A DNA stretch of 28,522 bases from a virus. Taxonomy: Duplodnaviria > Heunggongvirae > Uroviricota > Caudoviricetes. Where the stretch lies: IMG/VR virus record IMGVR_UViG_2529292923_000024. One strand, written 5' to 3'. Numbering within the stretch: the stretch's first letter is position 1; each line of letters begins with the position of its first letter. Shown piece after piece: positions 2,898 through 25,087 of this stretch. A program made the translations under genes and the position numbers. The notes under the pieces are model-generated. The model made no database searches, was not told where the DNA came from, and worked only from the letters and a program-made list of their open reading frames with translations.

Positions 2898-3532
2898 TGG
2901 TTGCCTCCTTTGCGAAGCTCAGCGGCGAAGGCTACTGCGTGATCATGATGTTCAAGCGTGTATGCACACTCCGCAAACATCTCCACGCCCTGCGCCCGGA
3001 CTTCAGCCAGGAAAGCATCGGTGGCTGGCGTTTCCCGTGAACGGTAAGACCAAACAATGTCGTCTGTTTCACTGGGTTCTTCATGAGAGCAATTTGGGCA
3101 GACAGCAGTACAACCAGCATGATCTTCTATGAGCATCTTCAGCCACGAGTTCTCCTCCGCCAGCGTCACGCGACTGGCCTCCAGTTCTGCTACGCGCTGT
3201 TTTGCAGCATCCAGTTCAATCGACAATTTTTCCAACTGCTCTTTATGCTTTTTATATTCCTGATATGCGTGCCAAGACTGACCTTTGCGCACACTATCAG
3301 TGATATCAGCAACCTGCTCTGGTGTTAGCGTGGTCAGTGGCTGTGCTGGGAAAATAAGCACTTTCCCGGAATCCCAATCAAAACCAGCATGAATTGACTG
3401 AACCTCAACTGAAGGTGTTGAACCAATGCTGCCAGGCGAATGAACAACGATCGTTACATCCATATCGCGACGATGGCTGTGGTTGTTGGACAAAATACGA
3501 TTCACCAACTCAGAAAATTTGGAGAATTTCAT
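2894..3532 (-). CDS. hypothetical early protein with coiled-coil, possibly Ea22-like
   Basis: 212 aa; overlaps the upstream gene by 4 nt; central heptad-like region (EQLEKLSIELDAAKQRVAELEASRVTLAEEN); CPNC motif. Confidence 0.4.
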   Translation of the reverse strand: MKFSKFSELVNRILSNNHSHRRDMDVTIVVHSPGSIGSTPSVEVQSIHAGFDWDSGKVLIFPAQPLTTLTPEQVADITDSVRKGQSWHAYQEYKKHKEQLEKLSIELDAAKQRVAELEASRVTLAEENSWLKMLIEDHAGCTAVCPNCSHEEPSETDDIVWSYRSRETPATDAFLAEVRAQGVEMFAECAYTLEHHDHAVAFAAELRKGGNQ

Positions 3533-3540
3533 GCGGAGCC

Positions 3541-3951
3541 TCAGTATGTAAAATAGACAGTTGCCACGCCGTTATAGTGATCAAACGATACGGCATTTAC
3601 TTCGTAGCTGGCAGGGAGCTTCGATCCGAGAACGTATCCGGGCCACGTTTTCCATGGAATTTCTCTGCGCTCACTATCGCCATATACCGTACATCCCAGA
3701 GAGCCTACAGCTTCATTAGAACGCGTGCCGCACGTTATGAATCCCAGATTTTGCTTACTGCTCTTAATGGTGATTGGGTGAACGCTGGCTGATGCATTAG
3801 CAGCACGCTGTGCCTGTTGGTTTGCGATATTCGCAGAGTTCGCAGCAGCTACAGCAGCCGTAGTCGCGGCGGTAGAGGCTACAATAGCTGCTGAAGCATG
3901 CACTTGTTGGATATTCACCAACAATGCCGCGACAAAAATCATCTTCTTCAC
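3541..3951 (-). CDS. secreted or periplasmic hypothetical protein
   Basis: 136 aa; N-terminal signal peptide (MKKMIFVAALLVNIQQVHA), Ala/Thr/Asn/Gln-rich linker, C-terminal domain with two Cys. Confidence 0.5.
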   Translation of the reverse strand: MKKMIFVAALLVNIQQVHASAAIVASTAATTAAVAAANSANIANQQAQRAANASASVHPITIKSSKQNLGFITCGTRSNEAVGSLGCTVYGDSERREIPWKTWPGYVLGSKLPASYEVNAVSFDHYNGVATVYFTY

Positions 3952-11233: not shown

Positions 11234-13255
<2,022 letters not shown>

Positions 13256-15326: not shown

Positions 15327-16876
15327 CTGTCTCTTATACACAAATCCCCACCCGGGGATTTGTGATGTCTGTCAGTCTGCTTTAGGGGGACTCTTTCCAT
15401 CCGGTAGTTTCCTTCCTCCCCGGCAGCGATTTTTTGAACTTTTTCCTCACCCGTTGATCTTCTCTTATATTTCATTTTCTTCGGGTCTGTTATGGTACTT
15501 TCTGATTGTTATTCATGGGCTAACGAGCAGTTTTGACATGCCCGTCTCGGTGATCCGCGTCGTACACGACGCCTTGTGTCACTGGCCTCTTCTCTCGCTC
15601 AGCATGCAGGTCTTTCTATTGTGAAATCATCCCAGTCCACTGCTCAGGTTGAAGGTGCGTACCGCCTGATACGTAACCCGTCTGTGTCCCCGCAAGCCAT
15701 TGCCGAAGCCGGATTTACCGCCACTGTAAGGGCATGTGAGGCTCATCCGCTGCTCCTCGCGCTGGAAGACACCACCACCATTAACTTCAGTCACAGTACG
15801 GCATCTGATGACCTGGGGAATACCACCACTAACCCGAAGACGCGCGGGCTGCTGGCTCACTCTGTCCTGATGTACGCCCCCGACAGCGCCCTGCCAGTCG
15901 GTCTTATCGAACAGCAGCGCTGGAGTCGTGCCACGGACACCTACGGTGTTAAGCACCAGCGAAAAGAACGTCCCTATGAAGAAAAAGAAAGTTACCGCTG
16001 GCAGCAGGCTTCGGAGCGCATGGCCGAACGGCTGGGGGAGATACAGAAACGGGTAATCACTGTCTGTGACCGGGAAGCGGATATCTGGCATTACCTGCAT
16101 TATAAAGTCAGCCACGGGCAGCGCTTCGTGGTGCGTGCAGCACAGAATCGCCGGCTGGAAGAAGCACCCGGCAAGCTCTTCGAACTGCCGGAAGTCCTGG
16201 CAACCGCGGGAAGCCACACGCTGAATGTGATGCAAAAAGGCGGGCGGGCAGCCCGCCAGGCCCGGATGTTCATCAGTTACAGCGAAGTCAGCATAAAAAA
16301 TCCCGACAACAGCGGCCAGGCGCTCCCGCTCACGTATGTCTGTTGCCGGGAGCAGGCAGAGGACGGCGCCTGCTGGCATCTGCTGACGTCAGAAAAAGTG
16401 GCGAGTGCCGCCGATGCGCGACGTATCGTCAGCCATTACGAGCGACGCTGGCTGATAGAGGAATACCACAAGGCGTGGAAAAGTGGTGGTACATGTGTGG
16501 AATCGCTGCGAATGCAGACCCGGGATAACCTCGAGCGCATGGTGGTTATCAAGGCGTTTATCGCGGTGCGGGTGCTGGGCCTGCGGCAGGGCGGTATCAG
16601 TGAAGAAACACAAAATGACAGCTGTGAGAAAATACTGACGCCGACAGAGTGGAAACTGCTGTGGGTTAAGCTGGAAGGAAAACCGCTTCCGTCACAGATG
16701 CCGACACTGAAATGGGCCTGTCTGAAACTGGCGAAACTGGGGCGATGGCATGACAGCAAACGCACCGGTCGCCCCGGTTGGGTAGTCATGTGGGATGGCT
16801 GGTTCAGACTTCAGGATATGGTTGAGGGTTACCTGGTGATGAAGTCTCTTGATCAGGAGATCTGATCAAGAGACAG
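15327..16876 (+). mobile_element. IS4-family (IS50/Tn5-like) insertion sequence, 1550 bp, flanked by 8-bp direct repeat GTTTATGC
   Basis: Left end CTGTCTCTTATACACAAAT (Tn5 outside-end-like), right end AGATCTGATCAAGAGACAG (Tn5 inside-end-like); transposase stop lies within the right end as in IS50; direct repeats at 15319-15326 and 16877-16884. Confidence 0.85.
15492..16865 (+). pseudogene. IS50-like (Tn5 Tnp family) transposase with an in-frame TGA at codon 15
   Basis: ATG 15492, then 14 codons, then TGA 15534-15536, with the frame continuing into the 429-aa ORF (GTG 15576 to 16865); aligns with recalled Tn5 Tnp throughout (GDPRRT, EGAYRLIRNP, DREADI, YERRWLIEEYHKAWK, DSKRTG). Confidence 0.75.
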
Positions 16877-19054: not shown

Positions 19055-19130
19055 GGCCCTTTAGCTCAGTGGTGAGAGCGAGCGACTCATAATCGCCAGG
19101 TCGCTGGTTCAAATCCAGCAAGGGCCACCA
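19055..19130 (+). tRNA. ileZ: tRNA-Ile2 type (anticodon CAU, ileX/ileZ-like)
   Basis: Cloverleaf assembled by hand: acceptor GGCCCTT/AAGGGCC, anticodon loop CTCATAA, TPsiC GGTTCAAAT, 3' CCA; near-identical to E. coli ileX as recalled. Confidence 0.85.
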
Positions 19131-19137
19131 TCACATA

Positions 19138-19214
19138 CCGCCATTAGCTCATCGGGATAGAGCGTCAGCCTTCGAAGCTGGCTGTGCGGGGTTCAAGTCC
19201 CCGATGGCGGTCCA
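19138..19214 (+). tRNA. argN: tRNA-Arg (anticodon UCG)
   Basis: Acceptor CCGCCAT/ATGGCGG, anticodon loop CTTCGAA, TPsiC GGTTCAAGT, 3' CCA. Confidence 0.8.
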
Positions 19215-19227
19215 TTATCAGCATCAT

Positions 19228-19304
19228 GCGTTGTTAGCTCAGTCGGACAGAGCAATTGCCTTCTAAGCAATCGGTCACTGGTTCGAATCCAGTACAACGC
19301 GCCA
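19228..19304 (+). tRNA. argO: tRNA-Arg (anticodon UCU)
   Basis: Acceptor GCGTTGT/ACAACGC, anticodon stem ATTGC/GCAAT with loop CTTCTAA, TPsiC GGTTCGAAT, 3' CCA. Confidence 0.85.
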
Positions 19305-19902: not shown

Positions 19903-20069
19903 TCCCGTAACTGAGGTCGCTATTGGCGGCCTTTTTTGTATCCGCGCCACGCCCGGCGCATATCAACCACAGAGCCTTTCGGGGGTGAGCTTACGGAGTG
20001 GTCAGTGTGACTTTCTCTGTGGGCAGATCGCTCCCGGGCGTTGGCTCACCCACCCAAAGGAACGTCACG

Positions 20070-20501
20070 ATGTTTGGTATTTTTGGTAAAAAAGCCCGCC
20101 GAGCGGCAGTGGAAATTAAAAAGTTTGAGAAACGTGATCTGGCACAGGCGGTTATTAATGCTGCCTATCTGGTGGCCTATGCAGATGGTGAATGTGAGGC
20201 TTCAGAGAAAGCGAAGATCGAGCAGATCTTGCGTAACCAGCCTGCGTTGTCCGCGTTTACGTCAGAAATTAATGCGATTAGCGCAACCATTATCGGTCAG
20301 CTGGATACGAACTTTAAAATTGGTCGTCGAGCGGCATTGCGTGAAATTGAAGATGTGAAACACGATACGCGTGAAGCGGAAGATGTGCTGGATGTGGCGG
20401 TGGCCATTGCGGAGGCAGACGGCGAAATTGAGCCGGAAGAGCGCAAGGTGCTGGAAGAGATTGCCGGTGTTCTGGGTCTTCGTCTGGAGAATCACCAGTG
20501 A
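20070..20501 (+). CDS. TerB-like (tellurite-resistance TerB family) protein
   Basis: 143 aa from MFGIFGKK; paired acidic DGE motifs (AYADGECEASEKAKIE and AEADGEIEPEERKVLEEIAGVLGL) typical of the TerB fold. Confidence 0.55.
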   Translation: MFGIFGKKARRAAVEIKKFEKRDLAQAVINAAYLVAYADGECEASEKAKIEQILRNQPALSAFTSEINAISATIIGQLDTNFKIGRRAALREIEDVKHDTREAEDVLDVAVAIAEADGEIEPEERKVLEEIAGVLGLRLENHQ

Positions 20502-20665: not shown

Positions 20666-20979
20666 TTTTTTTATTTGCTGTTTATTAAAAATACTACTGC
20701 ATGGTGAATCCCCCTGTGCGGAGGGGCGATCAGCAACCAGGTATATGGGATAATCGCGGATTCAGGTGCTGATACTGAATTCACCGGGAGGCACCCGGCA
20801 CCATGCTTTGCCGCAAAAGTGTTGTTTCTGTTTTTCTCAAACTATCATCGTTATCCCTTTATTTCCGGCTGCGCATGGCGTGGCCTTTTTTTTACGACCA
20901 GCCACTGGCAGATGGCCATCCTGTAATTTGATTCCGGTTCCGGCTTTTTAACTCTGTTCCTGTACACGGGAGAAATTCG

Positions 20980-22833
20980 ATGTCGATTAAACATTATGAT
21001 GTTGTCAGGGCGGCGTCGCCGTCAGACCTTGCGGAAAAGCTGACACACAAACTGAAAGAGGGCTGGCAGCCGTTTGGTAGTCCGGTGGCCATAACCCCTT
21101 ATACCCTGATGCAGGCGATTACAGCAGAAGGTGATGTGGTGGTCAGTGGTGCAACTGAGCCGGATTGGTACTACGTCATCGTACTGGCCGGGCAGTCCAA
21201 TGCCATGGCTTACGGTGAAGGGCTTCCGCTGCCGGATTCATACGATGCTCCGGATCCGCGCATTAAACAGCTGGCGCGCCGCAGTACAGTTACGCCGGGT
21301 GGGGCTGCATGCAGATATAACGATATTATTCCGGCCGACCACTGCCTGCATGATGTGCAGGATATGAGTACGCTGAATCATCCGAAGGCAGACCTGAGCA
21401 AAGGGCAGTACGGCTGTGTCGGCCAGGGCTTACATATTGCCAAAAAACTGCTCCCGTATATCCCGAATAACGCGGGGATCCTGCTGGTACCATGCTGTCG
21501 TGGTGGTTCGGCATTCACCCAGGGCGCGGAGGGGACATTCAGTGCGGACACGGGGGCCAGCCAGGATTCGGCACGCTGGGGTGTGGGTAAACCGTTATAT
21601 CAGGACCTGATTGCGCGCACTAAAGCTGCATTACAGAAGAACCCGAAAAATGTGTTGCTGGCGGTGTGCTGGATGCAGGGAGAGTTTGACATGAGCGCCG
21701 CCACCCACGCACAGCAACCTGCGCTGTTTACAGCCATGCTGACACAGTTTCGTGCTGACCTCTCCGTGTTTAACGCGCAGTGCCATGGTGGCAGTGCTGC
21801 AGATGTGCCGTGGATTTGTGGTGACACGACGTATTACTGGAAAAATACATACGCTACCCAGTACGACACCGTGTACGGCGGGTATAAAAACAGGGAGAGT
21901 GAGGGCGTTTATTTTGTGCCCTTCATGACAGACGGTAACGGCGTCAATACCGCCACTAACGCACCGGCAGAAGATCCGGATATTCCGGCATCAGGATATT
22001 ACGGTGCGGCATCGAGAACGAATGGAAACCAGGTATCATCAAACCGCCCGACACATTTCAGTTCATGGGCGCGCAGGAGCATTATTCCGGATCGTATGGC
22101 AACCGCTATTCTGAACGCAGCCGGGCGCACCTCAGCTTTCATCAGTGGTAAGGCACCGGAAATCAAACCCTCGCCCGGCGGCAACACGCCATCGGGGCCG
22201 TCTGAAGATGCATCCGTACGCACAATCTCCCTGTTGCCGACAGCCGGAGAGGCTGCTGCGCAGGGCTGGACCATTAAGGACGGCGGAATTCAGTTGTCGG
22301 GTGGTGTATTTAAGATCGCCAAGCAGAGCAATAAAACCTGGTCCCTGATGCATCCGGTGGATGACGCAGTCTCCCTGCTGACACGGGGTGGCAGACTGAG
22401 CTGTAAGTTTCGACTGTCAGGCGCACTGACCAACAACCAGTTCGGCCTGGGAATTTATCTGTATACCGATGTAGCGTTACCTGACGTCGTGGCGATGACC
22501 GGGACTGGTAACCCGTTCCTGATGTCGTTCTTCACCCAGACCACAGACGGCAAACTGAATCTGATGCATCACAAGAAAGCAGGAAACACAAAGTTGGGCG
22601 AGTTCGGGAATTACAGTAATGACTGGCAGACGCTGGAACTGGTGTTCACCGCCGGCAGTGCCACGGTTACTCCGAAACTGAATGGAGTGGCTGGCCCGGC
22701 ATTCCAGGTCATAAAAGACAGTCTGACACTGGGGCTGAATGCGCTGACGCTGACGGATATTACCAAAAATGCAGCGTATGGCGTTGAGATAGAAAGTCTG
22801 GTGCTGGAGATAAATGCACCGGCATCATCATAA
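20980..22833 (+). CDS. nanS: prophage sialate O-acetylesterase NanS-p (DUF1737 plus SASA/SGNH esterase domain plus C-terminal domain)
   Basis: 617 aa; N-terminal DUF1737-like MSIKHYDVVRAASPSDLAEKLTHKLKEGWQPFGSP; esterase GQSN motif (VIVLAGQSNAMAYGE). Confidence 0.75.
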   Translation: MSIKHYDVVRAASPSDLAEKLTHKLKEGWQPFGSPVAITPYTLMQAITAEGDVVVSGATEPDWYYVIVLAGQSNAMAYGEGLPLPDSYDAPDPRIKQLARRSTVTPGGAACRYNDIIPADHCLHDVQDMSTLNHPKADLSKGQYGCVGQGLHIAKKLLPYIPNNAGILLVPCCRGGSAFTQGAEGTFSADTGASQDSARWGVGKPLYQDLIARTKAALQKNPKNVLLAVCWMQGEFDMSAATHAQQPALFTAMLTQFRADLSVFNAQCHGGSAADVPWICGDTTYYWKNTYATQYDTVYGGYKNRESEGVYFVPFMTDGNGVNTATNAPAEDPDIPASGYYGAASRTNGNQVSSNRPTHFSSWARRSIIPDRMATAILNAAGRTSAFISGKAPEIKPSPGGNTPSGPSEDASVRTISLLPTAGEAAAQGWTIKDGGIQLSGGVFKIAKQSNKTWSLMHPVDDAVSLLTRGGRLSCKFRLSGALTNNQFGLGIYLYTDVALPDVVAMTGTGNPFLMSFFTQTTDGKLNLMHHKKAGNTKLGEFGNYSNDWQTLELVFTAGSATVTPKLNGVAGPAFQVIKDSLTLGLNALTLTDITKNAAYGVEIESLVLEINAPASS

Positions 22834-22916
22834 AAAGTGAGCCAGCCAAATGGAAGGTATCGTTAAACTCACCGGTAGTGTCAGTGGGTCGTCTGAGATG
22901 CCTGCATGAGTTATCA

Positions 22917-22949
22917 GAGCCATCAGTACTTAACTGGTGGCTTTTTTTA
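22917..22949 (+). terminator. rho-independent terminator upstream of the lysis cassette
   Basis: GCCATCAGT-ACTTA-ACTGGTGGC hairpin (one mismatch) followed by T7. Confidence 0.6.
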
Positions 22950-22983
22950 TTGCTGTCAGCTTCCGGATAACGGGAGACGGGGT

Positions 22984-23199
22984 ATGTACCAGATGGAAAA
23001 AATCACAACAGGTGTGTCATACACCACGTCAGCGGTGGGAACGGGCTACTGGTTCCTGCAGTTGCTGGACAGGGTTTCCCCGTCTCAGTGGGCGGCAATA
23101 GGCGTGCTGGGGAGTCTGCTGTTTGGGCTGCTGACATATCTGACTAACCTGTATTTCAAAATCAGAGAGGACCGTCGTAAGGCGGCGCGGGGGGAGTAA
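22984..23199 (+). CDS. S: phage-21-type pinholin (class II holin) with dual start motif
   Basis: 71 aa: [71 protein letters not shown]; closely resembles S21 as recalled; Met1 and Met4 give the two starts. Confidence 0.85.
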
Positions 23200-23203
23200 A
23201 GCG

Positions 23204-23548
23204 ATGAAGAAAAAATACGAACTGGGTGTTAAAGGGATAAATAATTACCCGGATAAGATTACTGTTACTGTGGCACTGGAAATTGGTGGGTATCCGTCAC
23301 TGTTGTTGCCAGATGTGGCGATTAGTCTTGACCGTACTGAAGGTGCCACGCTGGAGTTTTACGAAGCTGAGGCGAAAAAGCAGGCGAAGCAGTTTTTCAT
23401 GGATGTTGCTGCCGGGTTATGTGAAGGGGATGGTCCGTTGCCGGAAAAGCGGCCCATCATTTTAGAGGCGCAGGATGTGTTGATAACCTACAGAGGAAAA
23501 CTACCGGGAATAATTACTGGTTCTCTGAAGACTCCACCGCTGGCCTGA
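23204..23548 (+). CDS. hypothetical protein between holin and endolysin (same position as ydfR in Qin)
   Basis: 114 aa; ATG 4 nt after the holin stop with a GGGGAG RBS; no signal peptide or TM segment evident. Confidence 0.5.
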   Translation: MKKKYELGVKGINNYPDKITVTVALEIGGYPSLLLPDVAISLDRTEGATLEFYEAEAKKQAKQFFMDVAAGLCEGDGPLPEKRPIILEAQDVLITYRGKLPGIITGSLKTPPLA

Positions 23549-23598
23549 AGACTTAATATATCCAGGGATTTGAAATCGATAAACCCTGATAAATATCC

Positions 23599-24132
23599 AT
23601 GAACGCAAAAATCAGATACGGCCTGTCGGCTGCCGTTCTGGCGCTGATTGGTGCAGGGGCGTCTGCGCCTGAAATCCTCGACCAGTTTCTTGACGAAAAA
23701 GAAGGTAACCACACCACGGCATACCGTGATGGTGCGGGTATCTGGACCATCTGCCGCGGTGCCATCCTGGTGGATGGTAAACCTGTCGTCCCGGGCATGA
23801 AGTTGTCGAAGGAAAAATGCGACCAGGTTAACGCCATTGAACGTGATAAGGCGCTGGCATGGGTGGAGAAAAACATCAGAGTGCCACTGACCGAACCCCA
23901 GAAAGCGGGGATTGCGTCATTCTGTCCGTACAACATTGGTCCTGGTAAGTGTTTCCCGTCGACGTTTTACAGACGAATTAATGCAGGTGATCGCAGGGGA
24001 GCGTGTGAGGCGATTCGCTGGTGGATTAAGGACGGTGGCAGAGACTGCCGTATTCGTTCAAACAACTGTTACGGTCAGGTATCCCGTCGTGACCAGGAGA
24101 GCGCGCTGGCGTGCTGGGGTATCGACAGATAA
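23599..24132 (+). CDS. R: SAR endolysin (T4-lysozyme-like, GH24)
   Basis: 177 aa; N-terminal weakly hydrophobic SAR segment (YGLSAAVLALIGAGASA); catalytic E ... D ... T spacing (EGNHTTAYRDGAGIWTICRG). Confidence 0.8.
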   Translation: MNAKIRYGLSAAVLALIGAGASAPEILDQFLDEKEGNHTTAYRDGAGIWTICRGAILVDGKPVVPGMKLSKEKCDQVNAIERDKALAWVEKNIRVPLTEPQKAGIASFCPYNIGPGKCFPSTFYRRINAGDRRGACEAIRWWIKDGGRDCRIRSNNCYGQVSRRDQESALACWGIDR

Positions 24133-24221: not shown

Positions 24222-24260
24222 AAAAACCCCGTTTGTTGGCACCAAGCGGGGTTTTGTGTT
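24222..24260 (+). terminator. terminator-like hairpin after the endolysin gene
   Basis: CCCCG ... CGGGG stem with a long loop, followed by TTTTGTGTTT. Confidence 0.45.
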
Positions 24261-24288: not shown

Positions 24289-24471
24289 ATGGCGAAGTAT
24301 AAACGAATTCTGTTGAGGTTGACTATGAAAAATGGCCTTGAACTGAAAGCGCCTGTAACTGATGACATCAGCAGAGCACTGGCTTTTGCCATTAAGTGGG
24401 TGGCGGTCGGTGTTGCTGTGTCCCCGATGCTGTATGGGCTGGCAAAACTGGTCATTGCGTTGAAATCGTGA
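24289..24471 (+). CDS. hypothetical small protein (60 aa) with C-terminal hydrophobic segment
   Basis: ATG after a GGGAGAAC RBS; [60 protein letters not shown]. Confidence 0.4.
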
Positions 24472-24485
24472 AGGGAGGATTAAGC

Positions 24486-24617
24486 ATGTCAGACAAACTC
24501 ATAACGCTGGCGAAGATCCTCTGTGTAATTGTCGGCATTTCATTTTCACTAATGCTGGTTGCTCTTTTTCTTTCCATGGCCTGGATGATGTTGTCTTCGT
24601 CGGGGTTGCTGGGGTGA
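24486..24617 (+). CDS. hypothetical small membrane protein (43 aa, single TM)
   Basis: ATG after a strong AAGGGAGGA RBS; [43 protein letters not shown]; its 3' end overlaps the start region of Rz. Confidence 0.45.
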
Positions 24618-24628
24618 ACATAAACCGA

Positions 24629-25087
24629 ATGCTTTCCGCGTTTATCGTTATTCTGCTGGTGGCCTGTGGTGCGCTGTGGATGGCAACAGACCATTACCGT
24701 GATAACGCGATTACCTACAAAGCGCAGCGCGATAACAAAGCCAGTGAACTGAAGCTGGCGAACGCAACCATTACTGATATGCAGGTGCGCCAGCGCGATG
24801 TTGCTGCGCTCGATGCAAAATACTCGAGGGAATTATCCGATGCGAGAGCTGAAAATGAAACTCTGCGCGCTGATGTTGCCGCTGGTCGTAAGCGCCTGCG
24901 GATCAACGCCACCTGTCCAGGCTCCGTGCGTGAAGCCCCCACCACCTCCGGCGTGGATAATGCAACCGGCCCCCAACTGGCAGACACCGTTACACGGGAT
25001 TATTTCACCCTCAGAGAGCGGCTGATGACGATGCACAAGCAACTGGAAGGGGCACAGGACTATATCCGCACTCAGTGCCTGAAATAA
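24629..25087 (+). CDS. Rz: Rz i-spanin
   Basis: N-terminal TM segment then [44 protein letters not shown], closely lambda-Rz-like; an alternative GTG start lies at 24614. Confidence 0.85.
24840..25025 (+). CDS. Rz1: Rz1 o-spanin lipoprotein, embedded in the +1 frame of Rz
   Basis: Lipobox LVVSAC and proline-rich [30 protein letters not shown]; the start could instead be the Met at 24855. Confidence 0.8.

Follow-up and report, generated by a model that had tools for sequence, protein, structure and literature searches.

The closest described relative of the gene considered here is ydfR of the Qin cryptic prophage of Escherichia coli K-12 (b1555, P76160), which lies between a holin and an endolysin gene in the order essQ-ydfR-rrrQ-rzpQ. 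YdfR is a protein of 103 aa with a 72-residue core and a helical C-terminus; its gene starts 4 nt past the holin stop and ends in a stop codon that overlaps the rrrQ start (ATGA). A two-hybrid screen that used RNase G as bait yielded residues 1–72 of YdfR on three occasions (PMC13232886, RNA Biol 2026). This fragment gave a stronger two-hybrid signal with RNase E constructs than with RNase G, a full-length YdfR fusion gave a signal only with Rne 1–597, and chromosomal Rne(1–598)-FLAG co-eluted with Strep-YdfR (PMC13232886). DNase-resistant nucleic acid co-purified with YdfR, the co-elution from lysate could be RNA-bridged (the data come from overexpression and two-hybrid assays), and overproduction was non-toxic and changed few transcripts (PMC13232886). 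In an envelope-leakage screen, the Keio ydfR mutant also scored as a primary hit (PMC3879167 supplement), possibly because the cassette is polar on rrrQ, which encodes the SAR endolysin. The RNase E paper and this one screen hit were the only literature found on the family, and no published test of lysis timing was found.

Two groups of Shiga toxin phages provide further points of comparison. Phage H-19B carries an unnamed ORF between S and R, and the same ORF occurs in Stx1a/Stx2c-converting phages, BP-4795, and Stx2a_1447; its product is 99.1% identical over all 114 residues to the protein described below and the arrangement is the same, making the two effectively the same gene. The match is unannotated in H-19B and most of the matching Stx-phage records, with a few giving ‘hypothetical protein’. 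Phage 933W and most Stx2a phages possess a homologous S-R-Rz cassette with the same holin C-terminus, in which S and R are adjacent and the intervening gene is absent. In 933W, R itself starts 4 nt past the S stop behind GGAGAG, a site within the end of S that is equivalent to the Shine-Dalgarno sequence of the intervening gene. The 933W lysis machine therefore works without the gene.

The inserted gene and its setting

The window, here the whole stretch of 28,522 nt that was analysed, contains a phage-21-type lysis cassette in which an additional reading frame separates S from R. The block comprises the following features:

22916–22944, + strand: terminator-like hairpin with a T-run just 5' of the holin gene (12-pair stem, then TTTTTATT)
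22984–23199, + strand: S, phage-21-type class II holin (pinholin type), 71 aa (PF04971, E = 9e-33; phrog holin match)
23190–23196, + strand: Shine-Dalgarno sequence GGGGGAG, within the last holin codons
23204–23548, + strand: DUF1327/YdfR-family ORF, ATG start, 114 codons (114 aa)
23549–23598, + strand: spacer of 50 nt ahead of R; loci with longer alleles have a homologous pre-R leader
23599–24132, + strand: R, SAR-type endolysin (phage lysozyme), 177 aa (PF00959, E = 3e-24)
24223–24255, + strand: strong terminator-like hairpin 3' of R (13-pair stem, then a T-rich tail)
24614–25087, + strand: Rz spanin, GTG start, end of the lysis cassette (PF03245, E = 7e-47)
24798–25025, + strand: Rz1 ORF embedded in Rz (from the ORF list)

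The mechanically called holin ORF spans 22906–23199, but because the upstream hairpin falls inside it, the real holin start is 22984 or 22993. The holin shows 79% identity to K-12 EssQ and retains both starts, Met1 and Met4 (MYQMEK...), while the endolysin has a hydrophobic SAR-like segment at its N-terminus and is 90% identical to K-12 RrrQ. The first-pass annotation had described a 114-aa ORF starting 4 nt past the holin stop with its own ribosome-binding site, and the ORF list and a direct reading of the bases bear this out: the holin TAA (23197–23199) is followed by the spacer AGCG (23200–23203) and the ATG at 23204, with the GGGGGAG ending 7 nt 5' of that ATG. A chance ORF is ruled out by a match of 151.2 bits to the Pfam family DUF1327 (PF07041; cut-off 25, E = 9.3e-45, model positions 1–92 of 93) and by intact homologues in the same slot at ~75 IMG/VR loci. 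The ORF also matched phrog_406 (E = 1e-63), whereas NCBIfam and PADLOC gave no match for the protein, and membership of the DUF1327/YdfR family is near certain. The presence of ydfR at the equivalent position in Qin, as given in the first-pass annotation, was likewise correct, though the alignment between YdfR and the window protein (46% identity) is limited to residues 1–74. The genes flanking ydfR are far more similar to their counterparts in the window than is the gene in the middle, and in place of the unrelated helical C-terminus of YdfR and its overlapping stop the window has a PEKRP...KTPP tail, with 50 nt separating the gene from R.

The ORF differs in base composition from its neighbours, as would a moron (GC 47.5%, GC3 48%, compared to GC 54.5%, GC3 58–68% in S, R, and Rz). 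A promoter and terminator of its own were not seen; the terminator-like hairpins bracket the S-DUF1327-R block as a whole, no promoter-like site was found on the + strand between 22700 and 25200, and no Rfam RNA family was found within the S-R block. The predicted protein is acidic (pI 5.5) with a maximum 19-residue Kyte-Doolittle mean of 1.18. No transmembrane, SAR, periplasmic, or signal-like segment was detected among its 114 residues, and a secreted or membrane location was ruled out on hydropathy.

The gene, the family, and the position are already known and annotated, with S, the ORF, and R labelled by PGAP as ‘class II holin family protein | YdfR family protein | lysozyme’. In E. coli chromosomes the S-ORF-R block occurs at 97% identity, with at least 80% of the stretch present in 2666 of 5426 complete genomes. 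The order S-DUF1327-R was invariant in the E. coli-type IMG/VR loci (~75/75), with the gene always 4 nt past the S stop. Among GenBank phage records, the gene occurs in 101 and the endolysin in 341, such that ~70% of records with the endolysin are without it, and its distribution is distinct amongst the Stx phages (Stx1a, 41/46; Stx2c, 15/15; Stx2a, 2/124). It is near certain that the gene is accessory, or optional, in this cassette. The family as a whole is small: at 90% identity it comprises 251 clusters in a set of 5.8 billion proteins, and at 50% identity 95 representatives in a set of 1.84 billion. Profile searches of genome contigs for distant relatives returned no matches.

Comparison with 933W also indicates what the insertion did to R. 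The slot 4 nt past the holin stop holds R in 933W and DUF1327 in the window, and no Shine-Dalgarno sequence was found within 12 nt of the window R start (…GATAAATATCC-ATG); the insertion therefore captured the holin-coupled translation start. R itself also differs over its first 27 nt between cassettes with DUF1327 and 933W (compared at L096 1466–1480). Translation of the endolysin may differ between the two cassette types. A regulatory hairpin in the pre-R leader was considered and rejected, as the RNA structure was no better than that of shuffled sequence (z-score 0.58).

The remainder of the window is that of a lambdoid prophage with a CI-like repressor, Q, and Nu1, together with:

11320–12342 and 15576–16865: two transposase ORFs, of rve integrase-core type and of DDE_Tnp_1/Tn5-like type with a GTG start
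19055–19301: three tRNA genes
19998–20501: TerB-domain ORF
20673–20842: sRNA STnc100
20980–22833: NanS-p-type esterase
24289–24471: small membrane-protein ORF, 60 aa (phrog_1115)
24486–24617: small membrane-protein ORF, 43 aa (phrog_4906), its stop overlapping the Rz GTG start

Phages of the H-19B type carry stx, whereas the window showed no stx ORF in the stretch from the tRNAs to nanS-p. Both transposase ORFs interrupt the early/replication-to-Q region, and given these interruptions the prophage may be defective. The two small ORFs in the gap between R and Rz, 3' of the hairpin at 24223–24255, are predicted single-pass membrane proteins with a GC content of 46–48% (54.5% in R and Rz). Homologues occur in ~45 of ~75 related IMG/VR loci, and in 933W that slot is occupied by ant. 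As membrane proteins within the cassette, these two are better candidates for modulators of lysis than the DUF1327 protein.

Family architecture and the 114-codon allele

Alignment with the most distant members of the family, proteins of 72–76 aa (those with a named source from Yersinia, Serratia, Pantoea, and Sodalis), identifies residues 1–72 as the conserved unit. The window allele consists of this core, a 42-residue extension, and an end that coincides with a junction:

23204–23419, + strand: DUF1327 core domain, residues 1–72 (beta-beta-beta-alpha, three strands and one long helix)
23420–23539, + strand: tail module, residues 73–112 (CEGDGPLPEKRPIILEAQDVLITYRGKLPGIITGSLKTPP), a low-confidence prediction
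23534–23548, + strand: deletion junction, CCACC at 23534–23538, then CTG GCC TGA at 23540–23548 (the last two codons and the stop)

An AF2 model built on 20 diverse sequences placed strands at residues 5–14, 18–27, and 37–43 and a helix at 50–73 (block-mean pLDDT 76–95 over residues 1–70), with the tail unconfident (pLDDT below 50 for residues 80–113); an earlier run on a shallow alignment was discarded (pLDDT 43). Across the alignment of 20 diverse members Y53-E54 is invariant and Y5 nearly so, and the window core has both the strand-strand-strand-helix order and, as LEFYEAEA, the family signature xEFYExEA. The dsRBD-like and RNase H-like beta-beta-beta-alpha RNA-binding folds were considered as candidate structural relatives of the core. 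Foldseek searches of BFVD and the PDB returned nothing below E = 0.04, and the sequences of solved structures, searched with the 114-aa protein and with a 329-aa long allele, gave nothing significant.

In E. coli and Shigella the family is a mosaic. Two core alleles (MKKKYEL...INNYPDK and MTQNYEL...IRNFENK) are followed by either the tail PEKRPIILEAQ...KTPP or an alternative, PEKRLCSEERYTIQINN..., after which there is nothing or a coiled coil, a FAAFYDYC segment, and a C-terminal domain of ~130 residues. The resulting alleles are 112, 114, 116, 140, 163, 169, 176, 183, 194, 263, 269, 297, and 329–330 aa in length. The tail module is common to the longer E. coli alleles and absent from YdfR and the 72–76-aa relatives, and in phage Evi the S-R slot is occupied by the 72-aa core alone. 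Compared to the window allele, the long E. coli prophage alleles (176/183, 263, 269, 297, and 329–330 aa; phrog_2091, phrog_1085) share the core, the tail module, and the slot, but add the coiled coil, the FAAFYDYC segment, and the C-terminal domain, ending in LKVRI, or an antisense small ORF, all of which are missing from the window. No Pfam match was found within the C-terminal extensions. One 181-aa protein (P0181) carries the alternative linker, coiled coil, and FAAFYDYC...KSIQ modules downstream of an entirely unrelated N-terminal domain; the C-terminal modules of the long alleles are therefore exchangeable in their own right. Database proteins in which the holin appears fused to DUF1327 (e.g., P0010) require a frameshift relative to the window and were treated as frameshifted variants or sequencing errors.

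The 114-aa form looks like a deletion derivative of the 176–330-aa alleles, as judged from the bases at its 3' end. In six loci with long alleles (L003, L004, L045, L028, L047, L014), a hairpin, GCCAGTGCCCACCACTGGC, lies in non-coding DNA ~60 nt before R and is followed by GGGCTGAAGACTTAACATATCCAGGGATT...GATAAATATCC-ATG. At the equivalent point the window reads ...AAGACTCCACCGCTGGCCTGAAGACTTAATATATCCAGGGATT...ATG, with the K-T-P-P codons continuing directly into the right arm of this hairpin, which supplies CTG GCC TGA. The CCACC is shared by both sides of the junction and only half of the hairpin is kept; as a half hairpin is the derived state, the 114-aa form is most simply explained by a microhomology deletion of a longer allele, such that the allele ends in formerly non-coding DNA. 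Relative to L003, ~476 nt are missing, including the C-terminal extension and an antisense ORF of 86 codons. In another short allele (L016, ...SLKVRI*), the tail is joined directly to the final residues of the 297-aa form, and such deletions have therefore happened more than once.

The antisense ORF (86–98 codons), between DUF1327 and R, was seen in three loci with long or core-only alleles (L003 997–1257, L004 4479–4739, and L094 2744–3040, all on the − strand), where it and the 3' end of the long DUF1327 gene overlap. In L003 it has a good ribosome-binding site (AGAGGTGACT-ATG). It had no match in Pfam, NCBIfam, or PADLOC.

Core-only relatives occur in positions other than the S-R slot. Some are found among tail genes, between I and J (L009, L011), between M and L (L010), or after I (L008), and others lie between Q and holins of other families, ~0.5 kb 5' of the lysis genes (L090–L092). 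L010 additionally possesses an 80-aa ORF just 5' of the tail M gene (3323–3565, + strand) that is without a Pfam match and ends in a strand and then a helix (…YELVHQGINVTVHLELDWDASLAEIERRAIEDANQQLKDLVAGF) resembling the DUF1327 core, and this may be a diverged paralogue.

Constraint and candidate functions

Pairwise Nei-Gojobori estimates for the window allele class (74 loci), which are crude in that pairs are non-independent and recombination is ignored, gave a dN/dS of 0.74 for DUF1327 codons 1–110 (bootstrap 0.44–1.2), with 0.81 in the core, 1.1 in the beta2-beta3 loop, and 0.68 in the tail. At the same loci dN/dS was 0.073 for S (codon bootstrap 0.01–0.21) and 0.076 for R (0.05–0.13), a roughly ten-fold contrast in constraint that is robust. 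The first 72–110 codons are nonetheless open in essentially all of ~84 loci, and the core pattern survives to 25–30% identity in other genera of the Enterobacterales. Long-term constraint on the fold therefore exists alongside a short-term constraint that is very weak or diversifying. The first-pass annotation had described a conserved but functionally uncharacterised resident of the lysis cassette; the recurrent position and the uncharacterised status stand, while the sequence is mosaic and often truncated.

The reading preferred here, held tentatively and short of an even balance, is that the ORF encodes a late accessory protein of the cytoplasm, standing outside of the pinholin-SAR endolysin pathway, with a core that binds a host factor. 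The accessory DUF1327/YdfR gene was inserted into a phage-21-type lysis cassette and took over the holin-coupled translation start used by the endolysin in gene-free cassettes. Its product would be synthesised late, alongside S and R, from the transcript that depends on Q, a timing suggested by the anatomy of the block. This product would be a small, acidic, soluble cytoplasmic protein with a 72-residue beta-beta-beta-alpha core and a 42-residue tail, the coiled-coil and C-terminal modules of the longer alleles probably having been lost through microhomology. Its most likely activity would be the binding of a host cytoplasmic factor by the core, the best candidates being RNase E (at its catalytic N-terminal half) and/or RNA, and the protein may thereby modulate RNA decay late in infection; it would not be a working part or gatekeeper of the holin/endolysin/spanin pathway. 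The RNase E step, taken alone, is on the unlikely side; this target is extended to the window protein from YdfR, a 46%-identical homologue investigated in a single study. Near-neutral evolution is not expected for a binder of a highly conserved essential enzyme, and an acidic protein would be an odd RNA binder. A more specific version is improbable: the 72-residue core, a phage module not recognised before, would dock on RNase E at its catalytic half and, made with the lysis genes, would protect the long late transcript or re-route host RNA decay in the final minutes of infection, with the swappable C-terminal modules as oligomerisation or effector parts and docking kept by the 114-aa allele. 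In general, a small late-made binder of a host protein or of RNA is more likely than a part of the lysis machinery.

Several other explanations were weighed against this reading. A regulator of lysis timing, as had been raised in the first-pass annotation, could bind either the nascent SAR endolysin or the pinholin, the latter at its charged C-terminal tail, and so advance or delay triggering, or it could act in cis by uncoupling R translation from S. The invariant placement in every E. coli and Shigella locus examined leaves room for such a link, as do the co-transcription with the lysis genes suggested by the anatomy, the different leader without a Shine-Dalgarno sequence that the insertion gives to R (through which endolysin dosage could change), and the envelope-leakage phenotype of the Keio ydfR mutant. 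That phenotype could, however, be polar on rrrQ, and membrane-acting regulators would be expected to have a membrane or periplasmic segment and to co-occur obligately with the holin and endolysin, whereas the DUF1327 protein is devoid of such a segment and its gene is missing from ~70% of the phage records with the same endolysin (101 compared to 341 records). The window holin has an antiholin start of its own at Met1, and the end of its cytoplasmic tail is identical in gene-free 933W, such that no co-adaptation is visible. Distant relatives are not beside holins of the phage-21 type, some being among tail genes, and the dN/dS of DUF1327 is ten-fold above that of S and R. The suggestion of a lysis regulator is thus unsupported, and we consider this role unlikely.

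The gene might instead be a dispensable passenger, a drifting moron-like insertion that persists inside a selected operon, its 114-aa allele being a remnant without any activity under selection. A dN/dS with a bootstrap interval that spans 1 would fit such a passenger, as would the many different truncations and module losses, the frameshifted variants among the representatives (P0124, P0135, P0136, P0141), a reading frame that ends in formerly non-coding DNA, and the mild phenotype of YdfR overexpression. It is doubtful given that the reading frame remains open in nearly all loci, that the start context is precisely conserved, and that a core pattern (Y5, Y53-E54, the strands and helix) recognisable at 25–30% identity in other genera requires long-term purifying selection. 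A role in counter-defence or exclusion, with the core or the swappable C-terminal modules neutralising defences of the host or a prophage or excluding competing phages, could account for the mosaic structure (at least two core alleles, two linker modules, several C-terminal modules), the fusion of the same modules to an unrelated N-terminal domain in P0181, the peak of dN/dS in the beta2-beta3 loop, and the occurrence of a small acidic protein in a slot for phage accessory genes. This role is nevertheless very unlikely; PADLOC models gave no match, fold similarity to known inhibitors was not found, a product of the late operon would come too late for most early-acting defences, and there is no experimental hint in its direction. 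The late accessory protein with a host-binding core remains our tentative choice.

Implications and comparison with known systems

The gene is present in about half of complete E. coli genomes and in most Stx1a and Stx2c phage records, within the cassette that releases phage and Shiga toxin. If it were to tune lysis or the stability of late RNA, it would have a bearing on toxin release, though its optional and weakly constrained nature suggests that a large effect is unlikely. The DUF1327 gene should not be annotated as a lysis protein, and any deletion work must preserve the translation start of the endolysin. New here are the truncation of the window allele, the family's modular map, the takeover of the endolysin's coupled start, the contrast in constraint with S and R, and the non-lysis contexts of distant relatives, which together lower, rather than raise, the chance of a dedicated lysis regulator.

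Dedicated lysis regulators encoded next to holins include the S21-71 and S107 antiholins, T4 RI, P1 LydB, and the ‘releasin’ gp25 of Mu. The DUF1327 gene similarly lies within a lysis cassette and would be co-expressed with the holin and endolysin. Most of the known regulators, however, are membrane or periplasmic proteins or alternative products of the holin gene, in contrast to a protein that is without a hydrophobic segment and whose distant relatives show no fixed association with a holin.

Phage and host proteins known to target RNase E include T4 Srd (on the N-terminal half), T7 gp0.7, phiKZ Dip, and RraA/RraB. RapZ is an adaptor that also acts on RNase E (PMC13232886). No relation in sequence or fold was found between the window protein and the proteins acting on RNase E, and its expression would be late rather than early. 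Srd and RapZ contact the catalytic half of RNase E, and the window protein would do likewise if the result obtained with YdfR carries over.
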